64,000 nucleotides of DNA from an uncultured Clostridia bacterium (GCA_947175555.1 CAMWNK010000002.1:19186-83185); one strand, 5' to 3'. Shown: positions 821-27,092, counted from the first letter of the stretch. Numbers and translations: made by a program. Notes: generated from the sequence alone by a model not told the origin.

Positions 821-1816
821 TTAATTAGCTACCTGTTTTCTCATATCTTCTATCGTCTCGGCAAACATCTCTTTGAGCCCCTTCCTTGCCTTCCAGCCCA
901 AAGCCGCAAGTTTAGCCGACGATAAATCCATCTTTAGCGTAGGCGCATACCCAAACAGCGATATATCCTGCTCCTCGATACGCACGCTGACTTTTCCTGT
1001 GCCGAAGTTGTCCGCAACAAGGCGCGCCATATCGTAAATCGAGCAATACGTGTCTTCGTTGGCGGCATTATACGCTTCGCCCGCCTTGCCGTCGAGCAAT
1101 ACGGTGAGTATCGCGTCGGTAGCGTCATCCGTAGATAGATAGTTGCGCATTGTCTCGCCCTTGGTCTTAAGCACTATGTCCCTGCCCTCGATAACGCATC
1201 TTGCAAACTCTGCAAATACGCGCTTATCATTGTAAGATACGCCCCTGCCGAACGTCTGGGTGAGCCTTACGACCTTAGCATTTACGCCGTACTGCGACGC
1301 ATACGCGGCGCACAGGCATTCACACGCCCGCTTAGCCTCGGGATAGGAAGAGCGCGCCTGCATGACGTCAAGATAAGACGCGGACGTCTCATATACCTTG
1401 TGCTCAATCGTCGGCGAGCCGTAAACTTCCATAGTGGACAGATATACCAAGCCGCGCGCATTGTTGACTTTCGCAAACTTCAATATATTCTCAGCCCCTG
1501 CAAAGATATCCGTAATGACATCGACGGGGCTGTCTATAAAATCCTTGCTTGCAGTATGCGACGCACAATGTATAATGTAATCAACGCCCATATCTTCAAT
1601 TTTCAGATTGCACACGTCGCATACGATGTAGCGCAGATTATCTTTATGTAGTCCCTCGAAAGCCTTGCGCGCTTTAAGCTCATTGCGGACTAAGGCATAT
1701 ACCGTAATAGGCTGCTCTAAGTCATAAGAAAGCAGGCGAGCTACTATATCCCTGCCTATCAATCCGCTTGCGCCGGTAACAAGGACCGACTTGCCCTTAA
1801 GACGAGATATGTCCAT
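821..1816 (-). CDS. NAD-dependent epimerase/dehydratase family (extended SDR) protein
   Basis: 331 aa. N-terminal Rossmann motif VLVTGASGLIGRDIV. GGAGG sits 9 nt upstream of the ATG. Tightly packed with the cytidylyltransferase gene. Confidence 0.8.
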   Translation of the reverse strand: MDISRLKGKSVLVTGASGLIGRDIVARLLSYDLEQPITVYALVRNELKARKAFEGLHKDNLRYIVCDVCNLKIEDMGVDYIIHCASHTASKDFIDSPVDVITDIFAGAENILKFAKVNNARGLVYLSTMEVYGSPTIEHKVYETSASYLDVMQARSSYPEAKRACECLCAAYASQYGVNAKVVRLTQTFGRGVSYNDKRVFAEFARCVIEGRDIVLKTKGETMRNYLSTDDATDAILTVLLDGKAGEAYNAANEDTYCSIYDMARLVADNFGTGKVSVRIEEQDISLFGYAPTLKMDLSSAKLAALGWKARKGLKEMFAETIEDMRKQVAN

Positions 1817-1821
1817 TACTC

Positions 1822-2550
1822 TTATTCCTCCGCGCCGTATATCTGCGCATTTTCCTTAGCTTCCAATATAGCTCTCATCGCATAATAATCGTCGGGCGTA
1901 GTAATCTTGATATTGTCGTACGGACCGTCTACCATATACAGCTTGTACCCGTATCGATTCATAAGAGTGCATGAGTCGACGGTGTCGTACACGTTGTCGC
2001 TCATCGCTTTTTCATGAGCGGTCAAGATGTCGTCAAGATAAAAGCTCTGCGGAGCCTTTGCTACACGCGAGTTATCTCTTAGAGGGACTTGCTCTACGCA
2101 ACCGTCCTTATCGGTAACAACTATCGTCTCCTTGACAATGCCCGCGGTAATAGCACTGCCGTGCGCTTTGACGCAGGCAATATTTTCGGAGAGCAACTTG
2201 CTGTTAATGAGCGGACGCACGCCGTCATGGATAAGCACGATTGCCTTCTCGCTGCCCGCAACGTCTCTTGCCGCGCACAGACCGTTATATATGGATAATT
2301 GCCCCGAGCTGCCGCCTGCGACAATCTTTCTAACCTTGGTAATCCCAAATTTATCTATCTGAGAGCGCAGATAATCTATCCACTCCTCTACGCAAGAGAT
2401 AACGACTGCGTCTATGTCCGCATTGTTCTCAAAATGTTCCAGCGTATGAATAATAATAGGCTTGCCGAAAATCTCAAGAAACTGCTTGGGCTTGTCCTTA
2501 CTGCGCATTCTACTGCCTACTCCGCCCGCAAAAATCACACCGATATTCAT
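1822..2550 (-). CDS. IspD/TarI-family nucleotidyltransferase (possible ribitol-5-phosphate or similar alditol-phosphate cytidylyltransferase)
   Basis: 242 aa. N-terminus MNIGVIFAGGVGSRM..KPKQFL is the IspD/TarI signature. ATGA overlap with the upstream gene. Confidence 0.75.
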   Translation of the reverse strand: MNIGVIFAGGVGSRMRSKDKPKQFLEIFGKPIIIHTLEHFENNADIDAVVISCVEEWIDYLRSQIDKFGITKVRKIVAGGSSGQLSIYNGLCAARDVAGSEKAIVLIHDGVRPLINSKLLSENIACVKAHGSAITAGIVKETIVVTDKDGCVEQVPLRDNSRVAKAPQSFYLDDILTAHEKAMSDNVYDTVDSCTLMNRYGYKLYMVDGPYDNIKITTPDDYYAMRAILEAKENAQIYGAEE

Positions 2551-3884
2551 TTTATTTTCCCCCGTTTAGCTCTTTTACGCCTTATGCCCGTTCCGTCGCC
2601 GCCGTATACCGCAAGATATACTGCAGTGAGCCAGAATATCTCATAAAAAAGTCCGAGATGGAACCTTCTAAACAGCTGCTCTGCTATAGGATAAAAAATT
2701 ATGGGATAAATAAGCGCGCAATACATTAGCCATGAATAGCTATATTTATTTTTCTTGGTTTTGAGATACAGCCACTCATAAAACATACCGGTAATAAAAG
2801 GAAAAATCACCATGCCGAAGCATCCGAAATCTTCTACATACGGCTTAAACGCAGAATAAATATTTGAGCTATATGTAAACCCGCTTGAAGTTGTATACTC
2901 TATGAAAGGATCAAACCTGTTGTTTTGCACAAGATCGCCGAAGTTGATCCCAATAGGCTCAAGTATGCTCTGCAATGAACCCAACAAAGTTTGAAGAGTG
3001 GACACGCCGTATTGAGGAGCGTCGTTATATGTCCCGAGCCACATGTTGAAATTGTATAATCCCGAACCGCCGTAAATGCTGAGCGAATGGAATATATCCG
3101 ATTTATATTCCTTCATCTTGCCCATGATAAAGAACACTACAACCATTAGTAAAAGCAATACCAAAACACACTGAACTATGCGCATATTTACATTGTTTTT
3201 CTTACTGTTTTCTCTTAAGAATAAAACAAAAAGACAGATAAAATAAATTGCGTATCTAAGGAAAATATTCCTATCTGTTGATACTAATACGAGCACGCCG
3301 AATGCCGCAATAGGTATAAGCAACTTGATTATACTTACTCCGTCTTTGCCTGAAAACAGTCGTTGAAACAATCTAAAAGTATTAATGTACGCGATAGCGA
3401 CAACGATTTCTCTCATCTGCACAAATATTGTACCGGGGCTGTAACCGCCAACCGTATTGTCATATATTTGTCTAAGTTTCCCTGTAATTGAAGGCACATC
3501 GGAAACAGATATAAAAAGCTTAAGAACATAGCCAAGCATGCAGATAATAGAAACTATTATAAATAGTTCTGCAGGATATCTTCTCTTAATATTAGTCTGT
3601 TTAACGGGAAGGCGCGCGTTGAGTATTGCACATGCATCTTGCTGAGGAGACAATCGTCTCACGACAGCCGCGCCCACGCCCCAAGCAAGCAATGCGCAAA
3701 GTATGAATACAATAAATGTGCCGCTGATCTTAACTTCCCACTTAGAATAATTAAGAACGACAATAAAGAAAGATGCCGTTATGGCAAGGCAAAACAAAAA
3801 CCAAGGCGAAAGTAAGTCTCTCTTGCTTATCAGATAAGCAAAAGCAACAACGATTGCAAATAGAGCCAATGCCAAAAACGCCAT
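2547..3884 (-). CDS. Polytopic membrane protein, Wzy-like O-antigen/EPS polymerase
   Basis: Many hydrophobic segments and a position inside the glycan locus. I prefer ATG at 3884 (1 nt after the GT2 stop) to the TTG at 3905 used by the ORF track. Confidence 0.5.
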   Translation of the reverse strand: MAFLALALFAIVVAFAYLISKRDLLSPWFLFCLAITASFFIVVLNYSKWEVKISGTFIVFILCALLAWGVGAAVVRRLSPQQDACAILNARLPVKQTNIKRRYPAELFIIVSIICMLGYVLKLFISVSDVPSITGKLRQIYDNTVGGYSPGTIFVQMREIVVAIAYINTFRLFQRLFSGKDGVSIIKLLIPIAAFGVLVLVSTDRNIFLRYAIYFICLFVLFLRENSKKNNVNMRIVQCVLVLLLLMVVVFFIMGKMKEYKSDIFHSLSIYGGSGLYNFNMWLGTYNDAPQYGVSTLQTLLGSLQSILEPIGINFGDLVQNNRFDPFIEYTTSSGFTYSSNIYSAFKPYVEDFGCFGMVIFPFITGMFYEWLYLKTKKNKYSYSWLMYCALIYPIIFYPIAEQLFRRFHLGLFYEIFWLTAVYLAVYGGDGTGIRRKRAKRGKIK

Positions 3885-3885
3885 A

Positions 3886-4791
3886 TCAGAACAACCCCAA
3901 CACAACTTTCATAAAAAAGCCTAAGCGACTCTCGCCCGTATAGGAGCGCAGTACCTTTCGATTTCTCAAGACAGCGAGTTTACCGCTTGCACATGCCTTG
4001 ACAAGAGGACAGTCGGAGGTGAACTCGGGAAACTTGATAAGAAGCTCTTTAGCAAGCATGCTCCTCCCGTTACGGTACTCTTTATGAAAAGCCTTCTTCA
4101 TCCTTTCTTTACATTTTTTCTTCAATCCGCCGTCATACGCGCCGACGACGTTATTGCCATGCTGACGATACTTGATAAAAGAGCGGTTATCGTAAGCAAT
4201 TCCGCCGCACAACGAGCCTACTGCTGCCACCCAGACGTCATGAATCCTATTCCTAAGCAAAGTCTTGGACGGACGGCGGCTATCATCAACCATCAACTCT
4301 CGCAATGCAGAAGTCAATACCATCGTACACCCTGCAATCATATTCTTAGACAGTATCTGTGCAGGCTCGAGATAAATATACTTCTCCTCTGCATATCTAA
4401 GCCCCATAGAGTTACCGTCTATATCAACGCACTCTTGATTGGAGCCGTAAAGCGCCTTGCCCGACTCTTGCAACAATTTAACCGCCTCTATAAGTTTATC
4501 TTCTTCCCATATATCATCTTGATCGGCAAAGGCATAATAATCATATCCCGAAGGCGCAGTATACATTAGCTCCATAAAGCTATTGCCTACGCCCACATTG
4601 TCGCAATAATAAACAGTAATTCCTCTTTCTTTAACGTAAGTATCTAATATATCTTTAGTGCTATCCGAAGAGCCGTCGTCTCTTATATACAGCGATACTT
4701 CCACGTCTTTTTGCGCAAGAATACTGTCTATCTGCTCACAGATAAACTTTTCTCCGTTATATGCGCTCATAAGTACCGCTACGCTGCTCAT
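3886..4791 (-). CDS. Glycosyltransferase family 2
   Basis: 301 aa. VAVLMSAYNGEKFICEQIDSILAQ ... RDDGSSD is the GT-A/GT2 N-terminal pattern. TAATG overlap with LicD. Confidence 0.8.
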   Translation of the reverse strand: MSSVAVLMSAYNGEKFICEQIDSILAQKDVEVSLYIRDDGSSDSTKDILDTYVKERGITVYYCDNVGVGNSFMELMYTAPSGYDYYAFADQDDIWEEDKLIEAVKLLQESGKALYGSNQECVDIDGNSMGLRYAEEKYIYLEPAQILSKNMIAGCTMVLTSALRELMVDDSRRPSKTLLRNRIHDVWVAAVGSLCGGIAYDNRSFIKYRQHGNNVVGAYDGGLKKKCKERMKKAFHKEYRNGRSMLAKELLIKFPEFTSDCPLVKACASGKLAVLRNRKVLRSYTGESRLGFFMKVVLGLF

Positions 4792-5639
4792 TACTCGTTG
4801 CTCTCCTTGTAATATGCCGTAAAAGTATGGTGCGATACGCGCTTGTCCTCAGGCGGCAACTTCATATAATCACCGTATATACTGCCTAAATACTTATCGT
4901 AAGCGGCGATTGCATTAAACTCATAATCTTCAAATGGAAGTTTGACGTAATTTGTAAAAACTTCCTGCGGCAATATTTCCTTCTCACGATATGAACCTCC
5001 CACCGCCGCGGCAAATTTAACGTTGTCGAAATCAATAGCCGAATATCTTTTAACAATAGACTCATATAGCTTGCGCTTGTTGGCAAATCTGCTCAATATA
5101 AACATGCCGAATCTGAACGGCTCGAGATACCACCCGTGTGTCTTCGAGCGGAAAAATCTCTTCCAATTAGCGGCTACTAATAGAGCCCGCTTAAACGATG
5201 TCGCTCTAAAAGTCTTAACTGCCTTATTGTACGTATTAGCTAAGCCGTCTATAACAAATACGTCAATAGATACGCCTTCCTCCTGCTCGCCTTTGCAGAT
5301 ATTATCGTCTTTAAGTACGGTATCGGGGTTATAAACCTTTGCAGACATGTCGAGATAAGACTTGTCCGTCTCGTAACTTCTCACCTTAAATGGCAAATCT
5401 TCATGCTCTATCGCATACTTGATAAAAGCATCATAATCGGGACGGGGCATCATAATATCTATATCGTCATCCCAAGGTATATAGCCTTTATGCCGAATCG
5501 CGCCGAGAAGCGTACCTCCGCCCATCGAGTATCTAAAGCCCTCTCTCTCACAGATCTCGTGTACGGAAGCAAGCAAGCGAATCTGTATACGCTTCAACTC
5601 CTCTAATCCTATCTCATTACCCGACATAATAGTTTCCAC
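4791..5639 (-). CDS. LicD-family phosphotransferase (phosphocholine or polyol-phosphate transferase family)
   Basis: 282 aa. GGTLLGAIRHKGYIPWDDDIDIMMPRPDY matches the LicD core. Start uncertain (GTG 5639 or ATG 5627). Confidence 0.8.
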   Translation of the reverse strand: METIMSGNEIGLEELKRIQIRLLASVHEICEREGFRYSMGGGTLLGAIRHKGYIPWDDDIDIMMPRPDYDAFIKYAIEHEDLPFKVRSYETDKSYLDMSAKVYNPDTVLKDDNICKGEQEEGVSIDVFVIDGLANTYNKAVKTFRATSFKRALLVAANWKRFFRSKTHGWYLEPFRFGMFILSRFANKRKLYESIVKRYSAIDFDNVKFAAAVGGSYREKEILPQEVFTNYVKLPFEDYEFNAIAAYDKYLGSIYGDYMKLPPEDKRVSHHTFTAYYKESNE

Positions 5640-5701
5640 TTTCTCCTTGTGCTACGCGGATATAATCCGCGCCCCGCTCTTCAGTTTACAAGACACCCAT
5701 G

Positions 5702-6562
5702 CTAATCAATTGCCTCTGTAAGCACCGGCGGTCTCTTGTGAATCAACTTGAAAAATACGAACTTGCGCAACCAGCTCGGCATAATACATACGATGAATTG
5801 AATAAAATTCGTTTTACTGTATTGAGCATGCGAAATAAAGCCAGTCTTGTATATCATCTTACGCGTACGCTTATATTTTTTGTAATAGCTAAGCCCTCCG
5901 CGCCGAGCTATCATGTCCCTATTAGTGCGTACTTTGCACAAATAACTGTCAATATTCATACATATTGCTCCGTGTTGCAGCATGTCCACCCACAGCATAT
6001 CGTCTTCCATAAGCGGAGCATCCTTATAGTTGCCAGACTCGAGCACCTTGCTCTTACGGAACATAACAGTAACATGATTGAACGCGCTGCGACTCTTTTG
6101 ATACTGCGCTATCTCCTCTTGAATAAGAGGCACTCTGCGCTCGGCGACAAACTCGTTCTCGTCCTCTTCAAACTCTATTATATGACCGCCGCATATATCA
6201 AGCTCGGGATTTTGCTCGAATTCTTTAAGTTGTAACTCAAATCGATTACGCACAGCGATATCGTCTGTATCCATTCGCGCGATAAGCTCGCATGAGCACT
6301 CGGGCACGCCGTGAGCGAGTGCCAATCCCAACCCCATATTAGTATTAAGCTGTATCTCTTTTATCGTGATGTCGTCGTAAGCAGAATACTTGCGAATCAC
6401 CTCTTCAAGCTCAGACGTAATTGGACCGTCCTTGACTATCACCCACTCATCTGCCTTGACTGTCTGATCGTAAATGCTTGCTAAAGCTCTGTCTAAAAAT
6501 TCAGGTCGCTCCTTGCAATACACCGACATCAATACGGAAAATTTTATCTTGTTATCGCTCAT
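5702..6562 (-). CDS. Glycosyltransferase family 2
   Basis: 286 aa. FSVLMSVYCKERPEFLDRALASIYDQT ... VKDGP ... ARMDTDD are GT2 motifs. Confidence 0.8.
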   Translation of the reverse strand: MSDNKIKFSVLMSVYCKERPEFLDRALASIYDQTVKADEWVIVKDGPITSELEEVIRKYSAYDDITIKEIQLNTNMGLGLALAHGVPECSCELIARMDTDDIAVRNRFELQLKEFEQNPELDICGGHIIEFEEDENEFVAERRVPLIQEEIAQYQKSRSAFNHVTVMFRKSKVLESGNYKDAPLMEDDMLWVDMLQHGAICMNIDSYLCKVRTNRDMIARRGGLSYYKKYKRTRKMIYKTGFISHAQYSKTNFIQFIVCIMPSWLRKFVFFKLIHKRPPVLTEAID

Positions 6563-6752
6563 TTTCTGCCCTTATACTCAACGCTGCCGCACTAGTCTAT
6601 CTTCTTTATTAGCTTTCGAAGAAAGAATTATATACACGCACGCGCATTTCGTATAATTTTATATATTATATTATCAAGTATATCACAGTAAGGAAGAATA
6701 TTGCAAGGGGCGCATATCGTTTGCCGAAAATTAATATAGCTTGTAAGTAAGA

Positions 6753-6782
6753 ATAAAAAGACGCGCAAAAACCTTGCGCGCC
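6753..6782 (-). terminator. Rho-independent terminator after the DegT and sugar-transferase unit
   Basis: Minus strand reads GGCGCGCAAGGTTTTTGCGCGTCTTTTTATTC: an 8-bp GC-rich stem followed by a T-rich tail. Confidence 0.6.
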
Positions 6783-6853
6783 TAAAGGACATATTATCAG
6801 CAATTCAATAATTAATAGCTACAACTCTATCCGTCTGCAATTTGCTTAGTTAA

Positions 6854-7456
6854 TTACTCGCAAATTACCTTACCGATAGTTTTGAAAATCAATCCTATGT
6901 CGTAGAAAAAGCCTGCTTTTTCGATATATTTCAGATTAAGCTCGAGCTTAGCGGGCATGATTTCTTGTATATATTTACTTTCCGGATCCTCGTTGCCGTC
7001 GAGCAGATCGTTCTCGTTGCGGAATTCAATAGAAGCCAAATCGGTAATACCGGGCTTGACGCTTAAAACGCGCCTCTGCTCGTCATTGTACATCGCCACA
7101 TATTTAGGCACCTCGGGACGAGGTCCTACAAAGCTCATCTGACCGATAAAGACGTTGAATAGTTGCGGAAGCTCGTCTATCTTGGTCTTGCGAATGAATT
7201 TGCCTACTTTCGTAATGCGGTTATCGCCGTCGGTAGTTATCTGCATACCCTTTGCTTCGGCATCGACTACCATAGAGCGGAACTTCATAATCTTAAAGTG
7301 CTTACCGCCTTTACCTACGCGCTCCTGCTTGAAAAGTACGGGGCCCTTTGACGAGCACTTGATAGCAATAGCCACTATTATGAATATCGGCGATAATAGC
7401 AATATGCCGAAAAACGAGCTGAACAGGTCAAAACAACGCTTGAAAAATCTATACAC
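6854..7456 (-). CDS. Small phosphoglycosyl transferase (bacterial sugar transferase, PglC/WbaP C-terminal type); initiating enzyme
   Basis: FKRCFDLFSSFFGILLLSPIFIIVAIAIK..GPVLFKQERVGKGGKHFKIMKFRSM ... DELPQLFNV ... SFVGPRP. AAGGAG sits 7 nt upstream of GTG 7456, which I prefer to TTG 7462. Confidence 0.85.
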   Translation of the reverse strand: MYRFFKRCFDLFSSFFGILLLSPIFIIVAIAIKCSSKGPVLFKQERVGKGGKHFKIMKFRSMVVDAEAKGMQITTDGDNRITKVGKFIRKTKIDELPQLFNVFIGQMSFVGPRPEVPKYVAMYNDEQRRVLSVKPGITDLASIEFRNENDLLDGNEDPESKYIQEIMPAKLELNLKYIEKAGFFYDIGLIFKTIGKVICE

Positions 7457-8645
7457 CGACAATCTCCTTGAGTTTAGCAGCTACGTACGCGACTTCCTCA
7501 TCTGTAAGCAAAGTATGCAGAGGAAGCGTTATTTCGTTACGGTATAAGTCGTAGGCATTGGGATAATCGCTTATATTAAAGCCCAACGCCTTATATCCCT
7601 CAAACATCGCAAGCGGCTTGTAATGCACGTTGGTAGCGATACCCGCCTGAGCCATTTTTGTAATTATTTCGTTGCGACGAGCCTCGTCAATGCCGAGTAT
7701 ACGCGTGATATATAGATGTCCGCTGCCGATACTATCTCTCGTATCGTGCGCTATCGGACGGATAGACGTGCCCGCAAATGCTGCGTTATACGTGGCAATA
7801 ATCTCTTTCCGTCTTGCGAGCATTCCCTCATAGCGGTTGAATTGCGCCAATCCGAGCGCGGCAGAGATATCGGTCATATTACACTTATAGCCCAGCAGCT
7901 TAATGTCGTATTCCCACGCGCCTGCCTTCATCTTGGACAAAGCGTCCTTGGATTGACCATGCAGACTGTCCAGCTTGATTTGCGAATAGATATACTCGTT
8001 GTCTATACCTGCAATATCTCTCCACGTAACGGCTCCGCCTTCCGCAGTAGTTAAATTCTTGACCGCATGGAAAGAAAACGACGTGAAGTCTGCGATTTCA
8101 CCCGAGCGTTTACCGCACCTTGTTGCGCCAAACGAATGAGCGGCATCGGCAATAATTGCCACTCTTCCAAGCGCCTTCTGCACATCGCTTGAGGGCGTAA
8201 ATAACGCTTTTTTCTCCTTAGCAATTTCGTACAGCTTATCGTAATCTGCCACCACGCCTGCAAAGTCAACGCCTATTATAGCCTTTGTCTTATCCGTAAT
8301 TGCTTTGCGGACATTATCTGCAGATATATAAAAATCATCCTTATCGGTATCTACCAATACGATTTTTGCTCCGACATGATTGATAACGCTTGCTGACGCG
8401 GTGTACGTATAAGCACTGGTGATGACCTCATCACCGGCTCCAACGCCTAAAAATCTCAAAATCAATTCCAATCCCGCGGTAGCGGAATTTAAGCATACGG
8501 CTGCGGCGGTATTGCAATACCGAGCTATTTCCCTCTCGAATTTCCCCGTCTTGGGACCTGTAGTAATCCAGCCCGATTTCAAAGTATCGACAACTTCGTC
8601 GATTTCTGCCTGCGTAATATCGGGCGGAGAGAACTTAATGTTCAT
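7449..8645 (-). CDS. DegT/DnrJ/EryC1/StrS-family sugar aminotransferase
   Basis: IKFSPPDITQAEIDEVVDTLKSGWITTGPKTGKFE ... SFHAVKNLTTAEGG (PLP lysine context). AAGGAG sits 6 nt before ATG 8645, so the ORF-track start at 8663 is probably too long. Confidence 0.85.
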   Translation of the reverse strand: MNIKFSPPDITQAEIDEVVDTLKSGWITTGPKTGKFEREIARYCNTAAAVCLNSATAGLELILRFLGVGAGDEVITSAYTYTASASVINHVGAKIVLVDTDKDDFYISADNVRKAITDKTKAIIGVDFAGVVADYDKLYEIAKEKKALFTPSSDVQKALGRVAIIADAAHSFGATRCGKRSGEIADFTSFSFHAVKNLTTAEGGAVTWRDIAGIDNEYIYSQIKLDSLHGQSKDALSKMKAGAWEYDIKLLGYKCNMTDISAALGLAQFNRYEGMLARRKEIIATYNAAFAGTSIRPIAHDTRDSIGSGHLYITRILGIDEARRNEIITKMAQAGIATNVHYKPLAMFEGYKALGFNISDYPNAYDLYRNEITLPLHTLLTDEEVAYVAAKLKEIVGV

Positions 8646-8791
8646 CGCTTGCTCCTTAATCAATTACTAATAAAGATTATATCTCATGCACGCATAAAAG
8701 ACAAGGCAAATCAATGCCGATATGTCCTGCAAAAATATTTGCGGGACTTACGCAGATATTTTTATCGACCGCTGCGAGCGGCTAACTCTGC

Positions 8792-9379
8792 TCAATACAA
8801 ATCGGCAAGTATCTCCACGCACTTATCTATACCCAGCTTGCCGCTGTCGAGGGAGATATCGTAATTTTTTGCAACTCCCCACTCCAATTCCGTATAATAG
8901 CGATAATATGCCGCGCGGCGCTTATCCTTGTCCTTAAGACGCTTAAGCGGCGCGACGTCGCTCTCTCCGTATAGCTTGACAATGCGCTCGGCTCTCGAGT
9001 TCATGTCCGCATGGATAAAGACTTTAAGAATATTGGGATTATCTTTAAGAATATAGTCGGCGCATCTGCCTATTATCACGCAAGGACCTTGCTCGGCGAG
9101 GTCGGTTATCACCTTGCGCTGCGCAATCCACAGATAATCTTGATTGGCGACTCCGTTGACAAAGTGTCCCGACAACAGAGCGTTGCCTATCCAACTGCCG
9201 TACGCCGCGTACTCGCCGTGCTCTGCGATATAGCTGTGTGCAAAACCGCTCTCCTCCGCCACCTTATCTATAAGCTCATAATCGTAACAGGGGATATTTA
9301 GTTTAGCTGCAAGCTGCCTGCCTATAGTACGTCCGCCGCTGCCGAACTCCCTGCTGACTGTAATAACTCTGTTATCCAT
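8792..9379 (-). CDS. Cytidylate kinase-like family protein (AAA/NMP-kinase fold)
   Basis: MDNRVITVSREFGSGGRTIGRQLAAKLNIPCYDYELI. AGGAGG lies upstream of ATG 9379. The extra 37 aa in the ORF track are unlikely to be translated. Confidence 0.65.
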   Translation of the reverse strand: MDNRVITVSREFGSGGRTIGRQLAAKLNIPCYDYELIDKVAEESGFAHSYIAEHGEYAAYGSWIGNALLSGHFVNGVANQDYLWIAQRKVITDLAEQGPCVIIGRCADYILKDNPNILKVFIHADMNSRAERIVKLYGESDVAPLKRLKDKDKRRAAYYRYYTELEWGVAKNYDISLDSGKLGIDKCVEILADLY

Positions 9380-9606
9380 AATCGCCCTCCTTGCGCTTAT
9401 TAATTCTTCCTTTTCATAATTATAGCGCAAATTAAGGCTTTTGTGTACATCGACCTTAAAAATCAGCTTGGGAAATAAAATGCGCATCAAATCGATGTAT
9501 ATTTATTATCCGCAATATCACGCCCTCGCTTTTGCTCTCCATACGTTGATTTACGGCTGCTACAAGGTGTATAATCTATATCAAAGAAGATAAGGAGAGA
9601 CATGAG

Positions 9607-17694: not shown

Positions 17695-18206
17695 TACATT
17701 ATCTCCTTATTTCTTACCTTCGGCGCTGCGCCGATACAGTATTATTTTAACATATCGGATATTACATATCAATAAATATTTTTACGCGTTATTATTAAAA
17801 TATGTTCGTGTTAACGGCTTCGATTGATGTCATAATCTAATACTTTTTTGCAAATGCGCGCGCAATGGATAATAATCAGCCATTTTATACTGAGCGCTTT
17901 CATCTGCGCAGCCGCTTTACGTAGCTTAATTACTCGCCAACTTATCGCCTTATCCATTGTGCAAACTAAGGTCTATCCCTTTGTGGTGCAAAAATATCGC
18001 ATAATAATTGATAATATCTCGATTTCGCATTATCTACTTATTGCTATACCTATAGAAGCCTTCAAGATATGATTGACCTGCGCATTATTTAACATAATCA
18101 ATACCGCGCCCACTTACATTTAGCCGTGTCAGAGGTTGAAAATAAAGCGGTTTTCTGCTATAGTTATAACAAGTTCGAAGTATTTAGGACTTATTCGGAG
18201 GAAATT

Positions 18207-18569
18207 ATGGCAAATATCAACGCGTCGTCCGAGAACTATCTCGAGACAATATTGATGCTCAAGAGCACTAAAGGCAGCGTACGCGCTATCGAAATTGCGC
18301 AAGAGCTCGGATTTTCCAAGCCCAGCGTAAGCATAGCCCTTAAGCATTTACGAGAGAGCGGACACGTTACGGTTGACAACGACGGAAGCATATCGCTGAC
18401 CGACTCGGGAAAGGAAATAGCCGCTAAAATATATGAAAGACACATCGTTTTGACGCGTTTTCTTACATCGCTGGGCGTTAGCGCGAACACAGCGGAAGAC
18501 GATGCCTGCAAAATAGAGCATATTATCAGCGCAGAAACCTTCGATTGTATAAAAAAGCAATCAACTTAA
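18207..18569 (+). CDS. DtxR/MntR-family metal-dependent transcriptional regulator
   Basis: MANINASSENYLETILMLKSTKGSVRAIEIAQELGFSKPSVSIALKHLRESGHV. GGAGG lies 6 nt upstream of ATG 18207. The ORF-track start at 18126 is probably too long. Confidence 0.8.
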   Translation: MANINASSENYLETILMLKSTKGSVRAIEIAQELGFSKPSVSIALKHLRESGHVTVDNDGSISLTDSGKEIAAKIYERHIVLTRFLTSLGVSANTAEDDACKIEHIISAETFDCIKKQST

Positions 18570-18805
18570 GGCGCAATAACCGTCTTTAAGTTGAAAATCG
18601 CAAGAATAGACACGATAGAAACGCCGCATCGGCGCATACTCGCAAGAAAAAATGCCATTAGATACGGCAAGATAGATATTTTACCTCTAAATAAGGTATC
18701 TAAACGCAGTGATAACCGCTAAAAAGCTGATTTAGATTGCATTTTACGGCTTGATTTTCCGTATAATTTTCGCATAATAACCGATATAGAAAAATGCCTT
18801 GATTT

Positions 18806-18828
18806 TGTTTCACAAACCGCGTGAAACA
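18806..18828. repeat. Inverted repeat made of the two consensus parS half-sites separated by 7 nt
   Basis: TGTTTCAC-aaaccgc-GTGAAACA. The arms are exact reverse complements and match the halves of TGTTNCACGTGAAACA. Confidence 0.5.
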
Positions 18829-19473
18829 TTGGCTGAAAAATTGCTGTTTGAGACCGTTTTTATAGCTCGAAAATATAAAAATTTCACGCCCGCACACCTA
18901 ATCATTAGTTATATAATAGAAACATTTATTCTGCTTAGGGCATATTTTAGCCTGTTTATTTCTATTTGTGGGATAATTTTGTTACACGAGGAACATTATT
19001 AATTCCGCACTACCGAGTGCACCGACAGAGACCTGCTTTCCACGACAATATGGATTGATATGAGAGGAAATCCCACATATATCGAGTGCAAAATATTAAA
19101 CTAACTAAACGGCAATTTTAATTCCGTCGCAATTTGCACTAAATCTCAAGCATTATATGCTTTAGCTAATTTGCAACTATCATACTTGATATTGCAACAC
19201 AAATCACGTCAACTCATTTAGCAATGCGTGAATAATATTATGACGCACTGCTTAACCAATGTCAATTATAATTGTTGCAATGCAATATTTTATTATCGAG
19301 TAGCACAGTGAGAATACCAACGCAGCTATACTATAGCCGCATATTACTCAACGCAACTTAAATGATTATTATCATATAACCAATGGGAATATGGCAGTAT
19401 TTAATCTGATTTCTTCTCCACAAACAGAACTATTTTATTGAGCTGTCGGATTTTTACAACCGTATAACTTACA

Positions 19474-19494
19474 GCAATGTTTCACGTAAAACAT
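19474..19494. repeat. parS-like site, copy 1 of an exact 21-nt repeat
   Basis: GCAATGTTTCACGTAAAACAT. The core at 19478-19493, TGTTTCACGTAAAACA, matches 15 of 16 positions of the Bacillota parS consensus TGTTNCACGTGAAACA. Confidence 0.6.
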
Positions 19495-20619
19495 ATTGTT
19501 ACAAGCCTATTTACAGCTCAGCTTTGGGCACTATTTCAAACTTATGCGCTTTGTATTAAATTGCCGACTACAGGTATTAGTTAGTCTTGCAAGCAAGCGA
19601 TAAGAGCGTATTTATATATTATTGCCCATATCTTAAGATGTATAACCGTGCTTTTATCCGATAGAGTTTGATTGCCGCTGCATACTGCGCCCGAAGCAAT
19701 ATAGACTTCCAACTCTTACTCTATACAATGGGAATAGTCTGTCGATTATCAACTAAAGATTGGCTACTTCGATATACTAATCGAAAAGGCTGTTTTATAT
19801 ATAACATTAATTAAATACCGCCGAAAACCTATCATATAGCTATATAAGTGCATTTTTTTATGCTTATATCTGTCGCACGCCTTATACGCCGCACGCCAAT
19901 CGCAGCACGTTTACCGATAACTTATTTGTTCCATTCTTAGGCAATATCGATACAGCGCGCCATTTATATAGACATAAGCAGGGCAATATATTATCATCTT
20001 TTAGACAAACACCCTTGTCTTAATTTAGATAGAGTATTTATTATGGATATATGATAAGTTTAGAAGCGCGCAATGGTAGCACGTTAATTTGGTATGCTGC
20101 CACATTGATTTGTTATTAATAATAGTTTTAAGTAGATAAATCGATAATTTATATGGCTTTTCTCAACTTGTGTACCAATATCAGATACAAAAGCGCAACA
20201 TATTCTTGATTATAGACAATCACACGTTTTCACAATGGAGATTTATTTTTATGACTATATTTCTATTAAGTTTATCGACGCGCTTTACTGTCAATCAATG
20301 GCATTAGAGATATTTATCAAGAAAATCATTGCCGCCCGCAAATTTGAAGGCTTTAACGCAATAGATATGCTTAAGTATAGTTGTTTCGTTCGATTTATAT
20401 CATTTATTAGCATAATGCGCATTGATTTTTCAAGCGATCATCTTACATCATGATATAAAGCGCATCTGCAGATCGAATATGTGCGTAATATCATTAAGCG
20501 ATAACTATGCAATTCATATTAATTTATTAATTATCTATACAAATTACCCCGTATTGCCACCGTAATAAGTTTTACTTGGTGTAATTTGATACTTGAATAA
20601 TAAATATCTTTCTTTTTTG

Positions 20620-20640
20620 GCAATGTTTCACGTAAAACAT
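20620..20640. repeat. parS-like site, copy 2 of the exact 21-nt repeat
   Basis: Identical 21-mer GCAATGTTTCACGTAAAACAT in the same orientation, 1146 bp from copy 1. The core lies at 20624-20639. Confidence 0.6.
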
Positions 20641-20894
20641 TCTCGGCGGTTATAGAGCGTAGATATTTTTCTTTTTACACGCTTGCATGACAACCTCCGT
20701 TGTCTTATATGCTCTTTTACTAATCTACAAGGCTTTTTATTATAAATCGGATATAATCGCGACGTCGCCAAGCGTCAAACACTTTCTTGACTATTGTTTT
20801 ATTATACTTTAATTACTTATACATCTTAAGCACAGTTTATTACTATAGTCGGCAGCGACTGAGAACAGTAATTAATAAGGTTGCTTTTTAAGAT

Positions 20895-20923
20895 TTTAAT
20901 AATTATCAAAGATAATTATTAAA
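20895..20923. repeat. 29-bp perfect AT-only palindrome inside an A+T-rich tract (roughly 90% A+T)
   Basis: TTTAATAATTATC-aaa-GATAATTATTAAA: 13-bp arms with a 3-nt spacer. The surrounding 20886-20960 has about 8 G/C in about 75 nt by my count. Confidence 0.6.
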
Positions 20924-21169
20924 TTTTATTTTTTATGTTGATATCTATCGATTTTATTTATCGCTGTTTACGCATATTTTAGTCTTATTTGCCTTGCAAC
21001 TAATTTGTTATATTTCAGTCTCGATTGCGACCGATTGTCGATATGATTATTTTTATCCTTTAAGTGCGCATAGAAAGTTTATTATGTGCTCATCGCGTCA
21101 ACAATGTAATCGCCGCGCCCTGCGCAGTCTGAAGTCTTTTATATATAATATTATTAAAAGATTATTTAC

Positions 21170-21199
21170 TTGACAGCAAGGCGAGCCTTATATTATACT
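21170..21199 (+). promoter_or_regulatory. Sigma-A-type promoter for rpmH-rnpA
   Basis: TTGACA (21170-21175), 18-nt spacer, TATACT (21194-21199), 35 nt upstream of the rpmH ATG. Confidence 0.6.
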
Positions 21200-21234
21200 G
21201 TTTTAGCTATTATTAAAAGAGAGGGCTAAAGGAT

Positions 21235-21369
21235 ATGAAGAGAACTTATCAACCCAAAAAGAGACAGCGCAGCAAGGTGCACGGTTTCCGCAAGAGAATG
21301 TCCACCAAGGGTGGCAGGAACGTAATCGCACGCCGCCGCAACAAGGGCAGAAAGCAGCTGAGCGCGTAA
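21235..21369 (+). CDS. rpmH: 50S ribosomal protein L34
   Basis: My translation: [44 protein letters not shown] (44 aa). GAGGG RBS upstream. Below the ORF-track size cutoff. Confidence 0.95.
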
Positions 21370-21382
21370 TTATTGCTAAGAT

Positions 21383-21805
21383 ATGCAGAAGAAGTATCGT
21401 CTGGGAGGCAGACGCACTTTTTCATACATCTACCGTAAGGGCAGCAGGTGCGGCGGCAAATATGTATCCGTTACCTATTGCCCCACTAAATACGGCTTAC
21501 GCGTAGGCGTTGTTTCCGGTAAGCGCGTGGGCAAGAGCGTAGTTCGCAACAAGGTAAAGCGTCGCCTTAAGGATATTGCAATGCGTATCATAGGATATCT
21601 TCAAGGCGGATACAACTACGTAATAGTCGCAAAGTCGGGCACAGCAGACGTGCCTTATATGCAGCTGGCTCAAGACCTTATTATCTGTCTTGATAAAGTC
21701 GGCTTGATTAAGGACAAGGCGGGCGCGCTCAGCCAATTTGCCGCTTTAGGCAAGGCAAAGGATAGCGCAGACGCTCTATCCGCAAATAAGGCTGACTTAT
21801 GCTGA
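21383..21805 (+). CDS. rnpA: Ribonuclease P protein component
   Basis: 140 aa. GKRVGKSVVRNKVKRRLKD is the RnpA RNR motif region. Lies directly after rpmH. Its C-terminus is about 20 aa longer than typical and overlaps yidD. Confidence 0.85.
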   Translation: MQKKYRLGGRRTFSYIYRKGSRCGGKYVSVTYCPTKYGLRVGVVSGKRVGKSVVRNKVKRRLKDIAMRIIGYLQGGYNYVIVAKSGTADVPYMQLAQDLIICLDKVGLIKDKAGALSQFAALGKAKDSADALSANKADLC

Positions 21806-22020
21806 TACGCATCTATAAGAGGTATTACAATCCCTTAATGAAAGATCGGTGCATATACACGCCGTCATGCTCGGCGTATATGGGACAAGCCGTACGTAAA
21901 TGGGGACCTTTAGGGATAATTATGGGCATAATGCGATTGCTCAGATGCGTTCCGTGGAAAGAGGGCGGATTCGATCCCGTTAAGGATAATTACCGAGGAG
22001 TTGCTAAATGGATATTTTAA
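21799..22020 (+). CDS. yidD: Membrane protein insertion efficiency factor YidD
   Basis: 73 aa. CIYTPSCSAYMGQAVRKWGPLGIIMGIMRLLRCVPW..GGFDPV. Confidence 0.9.
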   Translation: MLIRIYKRYYNPLMKDRCIYTPSCSAYMGQAVRKWGPLGIIMGIMRLLRCVPWKEGGFDPVKDNYRGVAKWIF

Positions 22021-23267
22021 CTACGTTGGCGGTAGCTCTGCCGAGCAACCTGATTGGCAAATGGCTTGTTCAGTTGTCCCAGCTTTTGCCGTCGTTCGGT
22101 GTTACTGTCATCGTATTCACCATTATACTCAAGCTCATCACATCCCCGCTCGATATCTGGCAGAAGATATCTCAGCGCAAGCAATCCAAGGCGATGGCGC
22201 GCCTACAGCCTAAACTTGCTAAACTTCAGAAGCAATACGCCAATCAACCCCAACTTCTCAGGCAGAAACAAGCCGAATTACAGAAAGAAGAGAAGTTACA
22301 CCCCCTCGCTTCCTGCATACCGCTTATAGTTACCATGGTAATATTCTTCGTAGTCTTTGCGGGCTTCAGACAGCTTGTTGCCTATCAGAACGAAGTTATT
22401 ATGGAAAACGTATATAACGCATACGTAGAATTTAACGAAAATGCCGACAACGTCGACTCGGCAGTCAAGGATTACGTAATCTCGGCAGAGAGAAAGTCTA
22501 TTCTCGACAGCGACGCCGACATAAGCGAGGACTCGCTCAACAGCAGTCTTAACCAATTTGCATCTCAGATAGACGCTCAATCGGGCGCAGGCTGGGACAA
22601 GTATTCGTCCGCGCGTACGCTTTACGGCGACTATATGGACAGCTCGGAAAAAAACGGCTTTATGAACAATCTGCCTATAGAGCAAAAGGGCGTCATCCGC
22701 GGCGTGGCAAGCGCATATCAGACTGCTCTTAACGCGCGCCTTGCCGATGCTTACGAAGAGCATATGGAGAGCTTCCTTTGGATTAAGAACGTATTTATGT
22801 CGGATACCGGCACTAATGTAGTTCCTACGGCGCAGCAGTTCGTCGGCGGCAAGATACAGGCGCACTGGGACGTATCAGGAGTATCGTACGATACGCTTGC
22901 AGGTCCCGCGCAAGAGCGACTTAATAAGAAGTCTTTCTGGGACGTCAAGAATTGGAACGGATATTTTGTACTGCCAATCATATCGGTGGTGCTTTCCGTA
23001 CTGACCACGTGGTTTACGCAGAAGATGTCCCCTCAAAACATGATGGGCAGCGCCGATCAACAGAAATCTCAGCAAAAGACCATGAAAATGGTAACGTATA
23101 TGATGCCGCTTATAATGGGCATATTCGCGATTGTATACAGCGCGGCATTTGCACTTTATTACTTTATGAGTAACGCGGTTAGCACGCTGTTTAATATCGC
23201 TTATATTATTATCACTAAGCAACTGGATAAACGGGAGGCAGCCAAGAGCCTCATATCCGTTAAGTGA
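22008..23267 (+). CDS. yidC: YidC/Oxa1-family membrane protein insertase with an unusually long hydrophilic insertion
   Basis: 419 aa. ILKLITSPLDIWQ ... LQPKLAKLQKQY ... FLWIKNVFMSD ... MPLIMGIF. Conserved position after rnpA-yidD. Confidence 0.85.
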   Translation: MDILTTLAVALPSNLIGKWLVQLSQLLPSFGVTVIVFTIILKLITSPLDIWQKISQRKQSKAMARLQPKLAKLQKQYANQPQLLRQKQAELQKEEKLHPLASCIPLIVTMVIFFVVFAGFRQLVAYQNEVIMENVYNAYVEFNENADNVDSAVKDYVISAERKSILDSDADISEDSLNSSLNQFASQIDAQSGAGWDKYSSARTLYGDYMDSSEKNGFMNNLPIEQKGVIRGVASAYQTALNARLADAYEEHMESFLWIKNVFMSDTGTNVVPTAQQFVGGKIQAHWDVSGVSYDTLAGPAQERLNKKSFWDVKNWNGYFVLPIISVVLSVLTTWFTQKMSPQNMMGSADQQKSQQKTMKMVTYMMPLIMGIFAIVYSAAFALYYFMSNAVSTLFNIAYIIITKQLDKREAAKSLISVK

Positions 23268-23281
23268 ATGGGAGAAAGATT

Positions 23282-24103
23282 ATGAAGAGTATAGAAGTTA
23301 CCGCATCCTCTTACGACGAAGCGTTAAGAAGCGCGCTCGAGCAGTTGGGACTTGAGGAAAACGAAGTCGACACCGCCATCGTCAAGGAAAGCGGACTTAT
23401 TAAGAAGAAGGTTACCGTCAAGGTTACGCAGAAGCTGACAGGTCAGCTCGCCGCGCTCGAATTCATCGAGGGCGCAATAGAGCGCATGGGCTTTAACTGC
23501 GAGGTGGAGATGAGCAAGAGCGAGGAGGGATACCTTTACAACATCAGCGGTCCCGACGTAGCGCACATCATAGGCTACCGCGGAGACGTGCTCGACAGCT
23601 TGCAATATTTGGCGCTGCTCATAGCCAACTCTACGGGCGGCTTTGACGGCAGGATTATAGTAGACGGAGAGAATTACCGCGAAAAGCGCGTCCAGGTACT
23701 TACCAAGCTCGCTCGCAGATTAGCCTTTAAGGCGGCTAAGTCGGGCGAGGCTATTTCCTTAGAGCCCATGAATCCCTTTGAGCGCAGAGTAATACATTCC
23801 GCTCTTGCAGGCGATAATTACGTTACTACCCACAGCGAGGGAGACGAGCCTTCCCGTTATGTGGTAATCGCGCCCAATAAGAAGAGGGGCGAGGGCAGAC
23901 AGGGCGGCAGAAGAGACGGCGACAGACGCCGCTCGGACAGAAACAGGGGCGAGAGGACGACGTCCGCTGCTCCTACCGTGTCAAAGAGCAATATAGAGTA
24001 CCACACCGATATCGATATGTACGATGCTTCCAGCAGCGTCAACTTTAAGAAAAAGGGCTTTGGCAAGACCAAGTCGTACGGCAACAATAAGAGATTTTTC
24101 TGA
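23282..24103 (+). CDS. jag: RNA-binding protein Jag/KhpB (Jag_N, KH, R3H) with an Arg/Gly-rich C-terminal tail
   Basis: MKSIEVTASSYDEALRSALEQLG ... PMNPFERRVIHSAL (R3H). Follows yidC. ATG 23282 has a GGGAGAAAG RBS. Confidence 0.85.
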   Translation: MKSIEVTASSYDEALRSALEQLGLEENEVDTAIVKESGLIKKKVTVKVTQKLTGQLAALEFIEGAIERMGFNCEVEMSKSEEGYLYNISGPDVAHIIGYRGDVLDSLQYLALLIANSTGGFDGRIIVDGENYREKRVQVLTKLARRLAFKAAKSGEAISLEPMNPFERRVIHSALAGDNYVTTHSEGDEPSRYVVIAPNKKRGEGRQGGRRDGDRRRSDRNRGERTTSAAPTVSKSNIEYHTDIDMYDASSSVNFKKKGFGKTKSYGNNKRFF

Positions 24104-26730: not shown

Positions 26731-27092
26731 GGGCCTGTCTCGGCTTCGACGGGGAAGGGAGGGCAGTGTAAGCATACCGGAGGCTCGTCTCCGCAAATAC
26801 GGAAATTAAAATTAAACGCAGAAAATAAAACCGAGAGCTACAACGGCTCTCTTGCCTTCGCAGCTTAATTTAGCAAGGCTGTCGGCTGAAGTTTCCACGG
26901 CTTCATTACCGGCATCGGACTAGTGGAACAGGGCGCGTCGCTATGCCCAAGGCAACGCGCAAGACTTTTGGGCTTGCCAAAAGGCGAGTTTGCCGCTTAA
27001 CTCGCCCAAGGGAGATTGATAATCGGCTAAGTATGTAGAAAACGCTGTGCAAAGTTTCTCGGACAGGGGTTCGATTCCCCTCAGGTCCACCA
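26731..27092 (+). ncRNA. ssrA: tmRNA (SsrA), one-piece
   Basis: The 5' GGGCCUG pairs with the 3' CAGGUCC-ACCA, giving an acceptor stem with a G3:U pair. The T-arm is GGGGTTCGATTCCCC. The tag reading frame runs from GCA 26818 to TAA 26866-26868 and encodes AENKTESYNGSLAFAA. Confidence 0.95.

Follow-up and report, generated by a model that had tools for sequence, protein, structure and literature searches.

What are the two copies of an exact 21-nt sequence, GCAATGTTTCACGTAAAACAT, that occur 1146 bp apart on the plus strand of a gene-free region, at 19474-19494 and 20620-20640, and why are they so alike? The stretch of DNA analysed here (the window) comprises 64 kb in all, and a sequence-only reading of it had reported the pair, had noted that its 16-nt core falls one position short of the parS consensus of ParB/Spo0J, and had interpreted the copies as parS sites. 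Based on the comparisons below, the 21-mers are probably chromosomal parS sites, that is, candidate loading sites for the ParB/Spo0J CTP clamp, and form part of a conserved, ordered array.

Four parS-type elements in a gene-free gap

Exact and mismatch searches returned the two copies at the reported positions and spacing, with no further match to GCAATGTTTCACGTAAAACAT at up to three mismatches in the 64-kb window and none in dinucleotide-preserving shuffles (0/100). The core TGTTTCACGTAAAACA agrees with the parS consensus TGTTNCACGTGAAACA at 15 of 16 positions in both copies, as had been claimed. The 21-mer has internal dyad symmetry, and a repeat search detected no similarity between the copies past their 21 nt. 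They are embedded in the following arrangement:

18126-18569, plus strand: DtxR/MntR-family repressor gene on the left of the gap, with minus-strand housekeeping genes further left
18570-21234, no strand: ORF-free, AT-rich gap of 2,665 bp between the DtxR/MntR-like gene and rpmH (33.5% GC; remainder of the window, 49.1%); holds the whole array
18806-18828, no strand: split element, TGTTTCAC-AAACCGC-GTGAAACA, two perfect parS half-sites with a 7-nt spacer, at the far end of the array as seen from rpmH
18980-18995, no strand: CACGAG variant of parS, TGTTACACGAGGAACA, 174 nt after the split element
19461-19473, plus strand: conserved 5' flank of copy 1, CGTATAAC..., giving TATAAC-N9-parS
19474-19494, plus strand: 21-mer copy 1, core TGTTTCACGTAAAACA at 19478-19493, 15/16
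20620-20640, plus strand: 21-mer copy 2, core TGTTTCACGTAAAACA at 20624-20639, 15/16
20641-20668, plus strand: conserved 3' flank of copy 2, TCTCGGCGGTTATAGAGCG..., which reads TATAAC-N9-parS on the minus strand and mirrors copy 1
21170-21199, plus strand: likely rpmH promoter, TTGACA-18-TATACT, conserved with the related locus L001 and outside the array
21235-24103, plus strand: rpmH-rnpA-yidD-yidC-jag operon (Pfam Ribosomal_L34, Ribonuclease_P, YidD, 60KD_IMP, R3H/KH/Jag_N), a marker of the origin region

The gap thus carries four parS-type elements, namely the split site, TGTTACACGAGGAACA and the two 21-mers. The split site is present just as the sequence-only reading had described it and is conserved more deeply than any other part of the array; TGTTACACGAGGAACA had been overlooked. 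This last site, at 18980, matches the symmetric consensus TGTTNCACGTGNAACA at 15 of 16 positions, and altogether three sites with at most one mismatch to that consensus (15/16 each) were observed where shuffling predicted 0.00, within the one to two mismatches allowed for a 16-bp parS inverted repeat. The heptamer GTTTCAC occurs four times in the 64 kb, about as often as would be expected anywhere (~4), with all four occurrences (4/4) inside the gap.

The rpmH operon is a classic neighbour of the origin in Bacillota; here it is followed by radC and birA, which come after jag on the plus strand. Gene orientation turns from minus to plus at the gap, where the GC skew passes from negative to about zero; since the skew tracks gene orientation elsewhere, it does not fix the position of an origin. 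In agreement with the sequence-only reading, the window encodes neither parA, parB nor noc: tblastn searches of the 64 kb with B. subtilis Spo0J, Soj and DnaA queries gave no match at E<0.01, no Noc gene was seen, and dnaA was not found within -21/+43 kb of the array, the extent of the window.

Several other features of the window were recorded. An exact 13-nt direct repeat, TATTATTAAAAGA, lies on either side of the rpmH promoter (21149-21161 and 21208-21220), and a perfect 13-nt inverted repeat with a 3-nt loop, TTTAATAATTATC/GATAATTATTAAA, is found about 300 nt upstream of that promoter (20895-20907 / 20911-20923). A tmRNA gene (26731-27092, plus strand; Rfam 153 bits; tag peptide AENKTESYNGSLAFAA) is located about 5.5 kb downstream of the rpmH operon and has an equivalent in L001. 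The minus strand of 821-9490 holds polysaccharide/teichoic-acid-type genes of an ordinary kind, unrelated to the array, which encode an epimerase, an IspD-like cytidylyltransferase, LicD, two GT2 glycosyltransferases, a sugar transferase and a DegT aminotransferase.

The array in related genomes

Relatives were assembled as YidC-anchored loci from genome and metagenome contigs, the metagenome giving one usable locus. All are uncultured Christensenellales-like Clostridia, with a YidC identity to the window of 90% in L001/L013 ('uncultured Christensenella sp. MGBC120929'), 57-62% in L002-L007, L010 and L014-L017, and 44-51% in the outgroups L020, L021/L024, L022/L023 and L025. The coding DNA of the window and L001 is ~82-83% identical; the gap aligns with L001 only at 18770-19002, 19461-19494 and 20623-20668 and at the rpmH promoter. 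The first of these islands consists of the split element and the CACGAG site. The second, around copy 1, corresponds to L001 6979-7012, with a 16-mer identical at 16/16 positions, and the third, around copy 2, to L001 8561-8608, with a 16-mer identical at 15/16, its L001 form being TGTTTCACGTTAAACA, with T for A. The same footprint pattern recurs in the independent pairs L004/L006, L024/L020 and L024/L025, so that, together with window/L001, four genome pairs retain identity islands at orthologous positions.

A scan for parS-like sites with at most two mismatches, which covered 324 kb including the window, plus the outgroup loci, placed all sites of the relatives upstream of rpmH or of pcrA/uvrD, in the same order, and none (0) downstream. 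This order, which runs from the split element over 140-182 nt to a CACGRG-type variant, then to one to three further sites and finally to rpmH, is common to ~9 lineages of Christensenellales-like bacteria whose YidC identity to the window goes down to 44%. TGTGTCACGTGAAACA (or relatives of it) and TGTTT(T/A)ACGTGAAACA make up the further sites in the window's clade. There, no site combines an intact CACGTG core with two perfect arms, and lineages with 57-62% YidC identity have their mismatches at the same positions. In the equivalent gap, the outgroups have sites whose 14-bp core is perfect (L020 8312, L024 8569, L025 6287 and 6650).

These comparisons bear directly on the nature of the pair. 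The sequence-only reading had regarded the core as a one-off parS variant and had offered duplication as one explanation for its presence in two copies; neither description held. TGTTTCACGTAAAACA or its T-variant TGTTTCACGTTAAACA is the usual form in L001, L002, L004-L007, L010 and L014-L017, and since the clade site TGTTT(T/A)ACGTGAAACA is the reverse-strand reading of the A- and T-variants, the G-to-A change is the normal state of this site in the clade. The copies are alike over 21 nt only and correspond to two separate sites of the conserved ordered array, copy 2 being the positional equivalent of the site beside pcrA in L002-L007; moreover, the second site of L001 is the T-variant with different flanks. 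To judge from these positions, the two copies are equivalents of two distinct old sites rather than the outcome of a fresh duplication. The window copies share the 5' flank GCAA, and the flanks of their L001 equivalents differ (AGCTA vs CCTCA), so that the shared GCAA reflects either gene conversion over a short patch or chance, at odds of ~1 in 100. The latter figure also qualifies the earlier estimate of ~1e-3 for a chance recurrence of the 21-mer: its order of magnitude is right, but the surprise shrinks once the core and the flanking A at -1 and T at +1 are counted as selected, so that coincidence need account for no more than the GCA of the flank (three bases) and the A in position 11 of the core.

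TATAAC is found exactly 9 nt from the parS core at both copies, at 19463-19470 on the plus strand (copy 1) and at 20651-20656 in minus-strand reading (copy 2), and the same TATAAC-N9 arrangement is present in L001 (6981-6988 and 8589-8594). As TATAAC lies on the plus strand at copy 1 and on the minus strand at copy 2, the extended elements face each other. For a promoter reading of these flanks, no conserved -35 element was seen in the window or L001.

The gap itself is a recurrent feature. Upstream of rpmH or pcrA, 2-4 kb are gene-free also in L001, L016, L020, L024 and L025, and where the extent was recorded, the GC content is below that of the rest of the locus:

Window: 18570-21234
L016: 2928-6588
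L020: 7259-9296
L024: 7223-9298
L025: 5193-9279

In L022, at least 1.3 kb are gene-free up to the contig end, with a GC content that is not lower. The gap has been kept across the order even though its sequence, apart from the parS-type islands, has not, which suggests that the gap as such is under selection. Among the genes around the array, one for a UvrD/PcrA-type helicase lies between array and rpmH in L002-L007, L010 and L014-L017 (e.g. L004 5415-7580, minus strand) and is absent from this place in the window and L001/L013; in the relatives at 57-62% identity, the last parS-type site is located 5-600 nt beyond the helicase stop codon. In L002, L005, L007 and L014, the gene for Spo0A is located within the array region or next to it.

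Since the elements are near-palindromes of operator size, with the additional conserved TATAAC-N9 flanks at both 21-mers, and since the gap borders on a DtxR/MntR-like gene in the window and L001/L013, it seemed conceivable that they are operators for this repressor or for another helix-turn-helix regulator and resemble parS by coincidence. The array, however, persists where such a gene is not adjacent, which renders this explanation very unlikely: the sites are kept in L002-L007, L016, L020, L024 and L025, and none of these loci, where genes were called, has a DtxR-like gene beside the array. Operators would also leave the 15/16 match to parS and the perfect-core parS sites at the same place in the outgroups unaccounted for, and the sites are 0.5-2.4 kb away from the nearest promoters. 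Known DtxR/MntR boxes are unrelated in sequence to these sites.

The exact repetition and the internal dyad symmetry of the 21-mer would also suit a generic dispersed repeat, a miniature mobile element, an RNA hairpin, a terminator or a small RNA. We consider this origin extremely improbable, given that there are only two copies in 64 kb, unrelated beyond their 21 nt, and that these occupy orthologous positions in relatives. The gap has no Rfam match at the gathering threshold or at E<=1, and neither copy is followed by a terminator-like call or a T-run. Covariation was likewise not found, as variation at N positions is uncompensated: position 5 in the left arm of the split element varies between T and C with no compensating change in the right arm, which fits the N of a parS half-site and argues against an RNA stem or hairpin.

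ParB, the replication origin and known parS systems

ParB (ParB_N + HTH_ParB) is encoded in L005, L020, L022, L024 and L025. The outgroup genes, with or without parA, are found 8-10 kb downstream of the array beside dnaN/dnaA, which in the relatives lie ~10 kb from the array; in L005, which belongs to the clade with imperfect sites, the gene for a canonical ParB is the immediate neighbour of dnaA. In L005, L022 and L025, parB has no adjacent parA. The dnaA-dnaN genes are on the opposite strand to the rpmH...parB block and converge with it (L020 16437-20846; L022 3975-4835 and 8851-10437; L005 19305-21296; L025 17405-21023); the rpmH/dnaA layout of Bacillus is divergent. L005 ParB has 45% identity to Spo0J, contains the CTP-binding motif GERRLRA and aligns an Arg and, 28 residues on, a Gly with Caulobacter R173 and G201, of which the former is invariable and the latter preferred in parS-specific ParB variants (Jalal et al. 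2020, PMC7383237). With a canonical ParB of this kind in the clade, it is more probable that the imperfect sites are sub-optimal targets of a normal ParB than that they match a shifted specificity. From the relatives, we infer that the window genome has a ParB of its own.

The intact ParB of L005 is also relevant to the question of whether the sites are mere relics of former parS sites, left behind after ParB was lost or the sites decayed, with the identical 21-mers as a neutral by-product of a short duplication or conversion. All sites in the window's clade are imperfect, the window lacks a ParB gene, and the flank GCAA, common to both copies, points to a possible conversion. Yet the neutral DNA of the gap is randomised relative to L001, while the 16-mers are kept at 16/16 and 15/16 positions, and the mismatches have remained at the same positions in lineages with no more than 57-62% YidC identity. 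Together with the canonical ParB that L005 retains in the same clade, these footprints make dead relics a very unlikely explanation.

As a long, AT-rich, non-coding region that adjoins rpmH at a switch in gene orientation, with a GC skew going from negative to about zero, the gap might alternatively be oriC, with the elements related to DnaA or an accessory initiator factor. We regard this as highly improbable. In the 2.66-kb gap there is no cluster of DnaA boxes (TTATNCACA), with one box at one mismatch (~0.5 expected) and 0 perfect, and the half-sites match parS, TGTTTCACA agreeing with the DnaA box TTATCCACA at 6/9 and with TTATNCACA at 7/9 positions. In L020, three perfect DnaA boxes are found in the dnaA-dnaN spacer, ~10 kb away from the array, which locates the oriC of that genome there, outside the array gap. 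The two readings are compatible, in that the gap could act as an origin and the sites within it as parS. As a separate observation, two perfect TTATCCACA boxes lie 135 nt apart on the minus strand of L002 (3139 and 3274), in the gene-poor region that separates Spo0A from the parS-type sites; that genome may have a cluster of DnaA boxes, or part of an origin, here.

The interpretation of the 21-mers as parS sites is therefore well supported by several lines of evidence: the match in sequence, the clustering of the sites next to the rpmH operon, their conservation as islands at the same position across lineages, and the presence of equivalent sites in relatives that encode canonical ParB. In the mechanism that we propose, a ParB dimer would nucleate on each near-palindromic 16-mer, which offers one perfect half-site and one with a single change, would then bind CTP, close to a clamp and slide into the surrounding untranscribed, AT-rich DNA, and the resulting partition complex would mark the origin-proximal region for segregation and SMC loading. 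ParB is known to nucleate on parS as an open clamp, followed by CTP binding, closure and sliding, with RNA polymerase and bound proteins acting as roadblocks (PMC8367383). That ParB binds the variants of this array and that the downstream roles ensue is inferred by extension to the present locus.

How well would such sites work? The array is reminiscent of P. aeruginosa parS1-4, a four-site, origin-proximal cluster with identical pairs, in which sites with one mismatch are functional at a slightly lower affinity and the CACGTG core matters (PMC4368675). Natural parS sites of B. subtilis differ in strength, and both strength and clustering affect Smc loading (bioRxiv 10.1101/2020.12.04.411900). 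In the light of these two systems, the 21-mers can be read as moderately strong putative parS sites in a gene-free platform for the ParB complex, the A-variant probably being somewhat weaker as a putative ParB site. As no site of the clade joins an intact CACGTG core, reported to be important for affinity, to two perfect arms, binding of ParB may even be weak.

The window shares with B. subtilis the 16-bp consensus and the presence of several sites near rpmH/jag, genes that mark the origin region. Unlike in B. subtilis, however, its sites lie together in a single 2.7-kb gene-free, AT-rich gap, its clade has no perfect site, no parB is found close to the sites, and one element of the array is a split pair of half-sites. 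The parS sites of B. subtilis are scattered and mostly located within genes. For B. subtilis Spo0J (ParB), with the consensus TGTTNCACGTGAAACA, 10 sites are described, 8 of them in the ori domain, and the natural sites are imperfect and of unequal strength (PMC7022226; bioRxiv 10.1101/2020.12.04.411900). A small array, in combination with parB lacking an adjacent parA in L005, L022 and L025, is also reminiscent of S. pneumoniae, whose ParB/parS system has 4 origin-proximal sites and no ParA, but whose consensus differs at its ends (AGTTTCACGTGAAACT). Finally, the site TGTTACAC-GGGAAACA of relatives, with the half TGTTTCCC, resembles the Bacillota Noc-binding site (NBS) ATTTCCCGGGAAAT in having the NBS-type C at position 6 (PMC7383237). 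The A at position 1 of the NBS is, in contrast, absent: all window sites have G at this position, and none has a CCCGGG core, the window version being CACGAG.

The split element and the CACGAG variant

The split element, in the form GTTNCAC-N7-GTGNAAC, occurs upstream of rpmH in ~9 lineages, including one genome with 31% GC, and its spacer, approximately A[AT][AT]YNNC, is always 7 nt long. It was located at the following positions in the relatives:

L001: 6365
L004: 2250
L006: 3944
L007: 1679
L016: 3487
L020: 7995
L021: 8234
L024: 8228
L022: 939
L025: 5714

In every lineage in which it was found, the split element is followed after 140-182 nt, or 173-174 nt in the window's clade, by the variant GTTNCAC-(G/A)(A/G)G-NAAC, with CACGAG, CACGGG or, in two lineages, CACAAG at its centre and never CACGTG. 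This combination of split element and CACGRG-type variant is kept in lineages down to 44% YidC identity.

Two other reasons for this conservation pattern were considered and rejected. A small protein gene across the module from split element to CACGAG site was one candidate; here, the tblastx similarity merely mirrors the nucleotide islands, and the spacing of 173 vs 174 nt breaks the reading frame. The other was avoidance of CACGTG due to a restriction system; CACGTG occurs 8 times in the window, and relatives keep it in the TGTGTCACGTGAAACA site.

With 7 extra bp between them, the half-sites face different sides of the helix, so that the spacer is geometrically incompatible with a canonical dimer occupying both halves, and binding of this kind is unlikely. 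ParB of P. aeruginosa also binds lone GTTTCAC/GTTCCAC half-sites (PMC4368675; PMC7022226), and isolated half-parS heptamers are likewise bound by ParB in some other species (PMC7022226). The half-parS sites of P. aeruginosa, however, are hundreds of dispersed single heptamers, whereas the two half-sites of the window form an inverted pair, with a spacer that is invariably 7 nt long and a single, fixed location, and GTTTCAC is absent from its 64 kb outside the gap. Literature searches with the variant sequences of the array as strings matched no paper in the collection searched, and the split element is the only part of the array that may be new.

It is conceivable, if rather doubtful, that the array constitutes a structured centromere in which the non-canonical elements, split and CACGRG, have roles of their own and the 2-4 kb gap is a selected platform. 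One possibility is that ParB, or a ParB-like paralogue, binds to these elements but is not licensed there to close its clamp; the elements so occupied could act as a static anchor, a bridging point or a boundary for the sliding ParB/SMC complex. In that case, the loading rate would be tuned by the other sites through their lasting defect at a single position (position 5, C to T or A), and the untranscribed, AT-rich gap would have been selected as the platform on which the ParB/SMC complex resides.

One-mismatch parS sites in origin regions are already well known. The array described here assigns a putative centromere-like region to the chromosome of a Christensenellales-like gut bacterium whose lineage is uncultured and little studied. 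What the comparison has added is an order-wide, fixed architecture of split pair, CACGRG variant and ordinary parS in a long gene-free gap, and one clade that has no perfect palindromic site although its ParB looks canonical. If the non-canonical elements were indeed functional, this would be a natural system in which ParB nucleation is separated from CTP-dependent clamp loading, and it would also allow one to ask how the strength and spacing of sites shape the loading of SMC.
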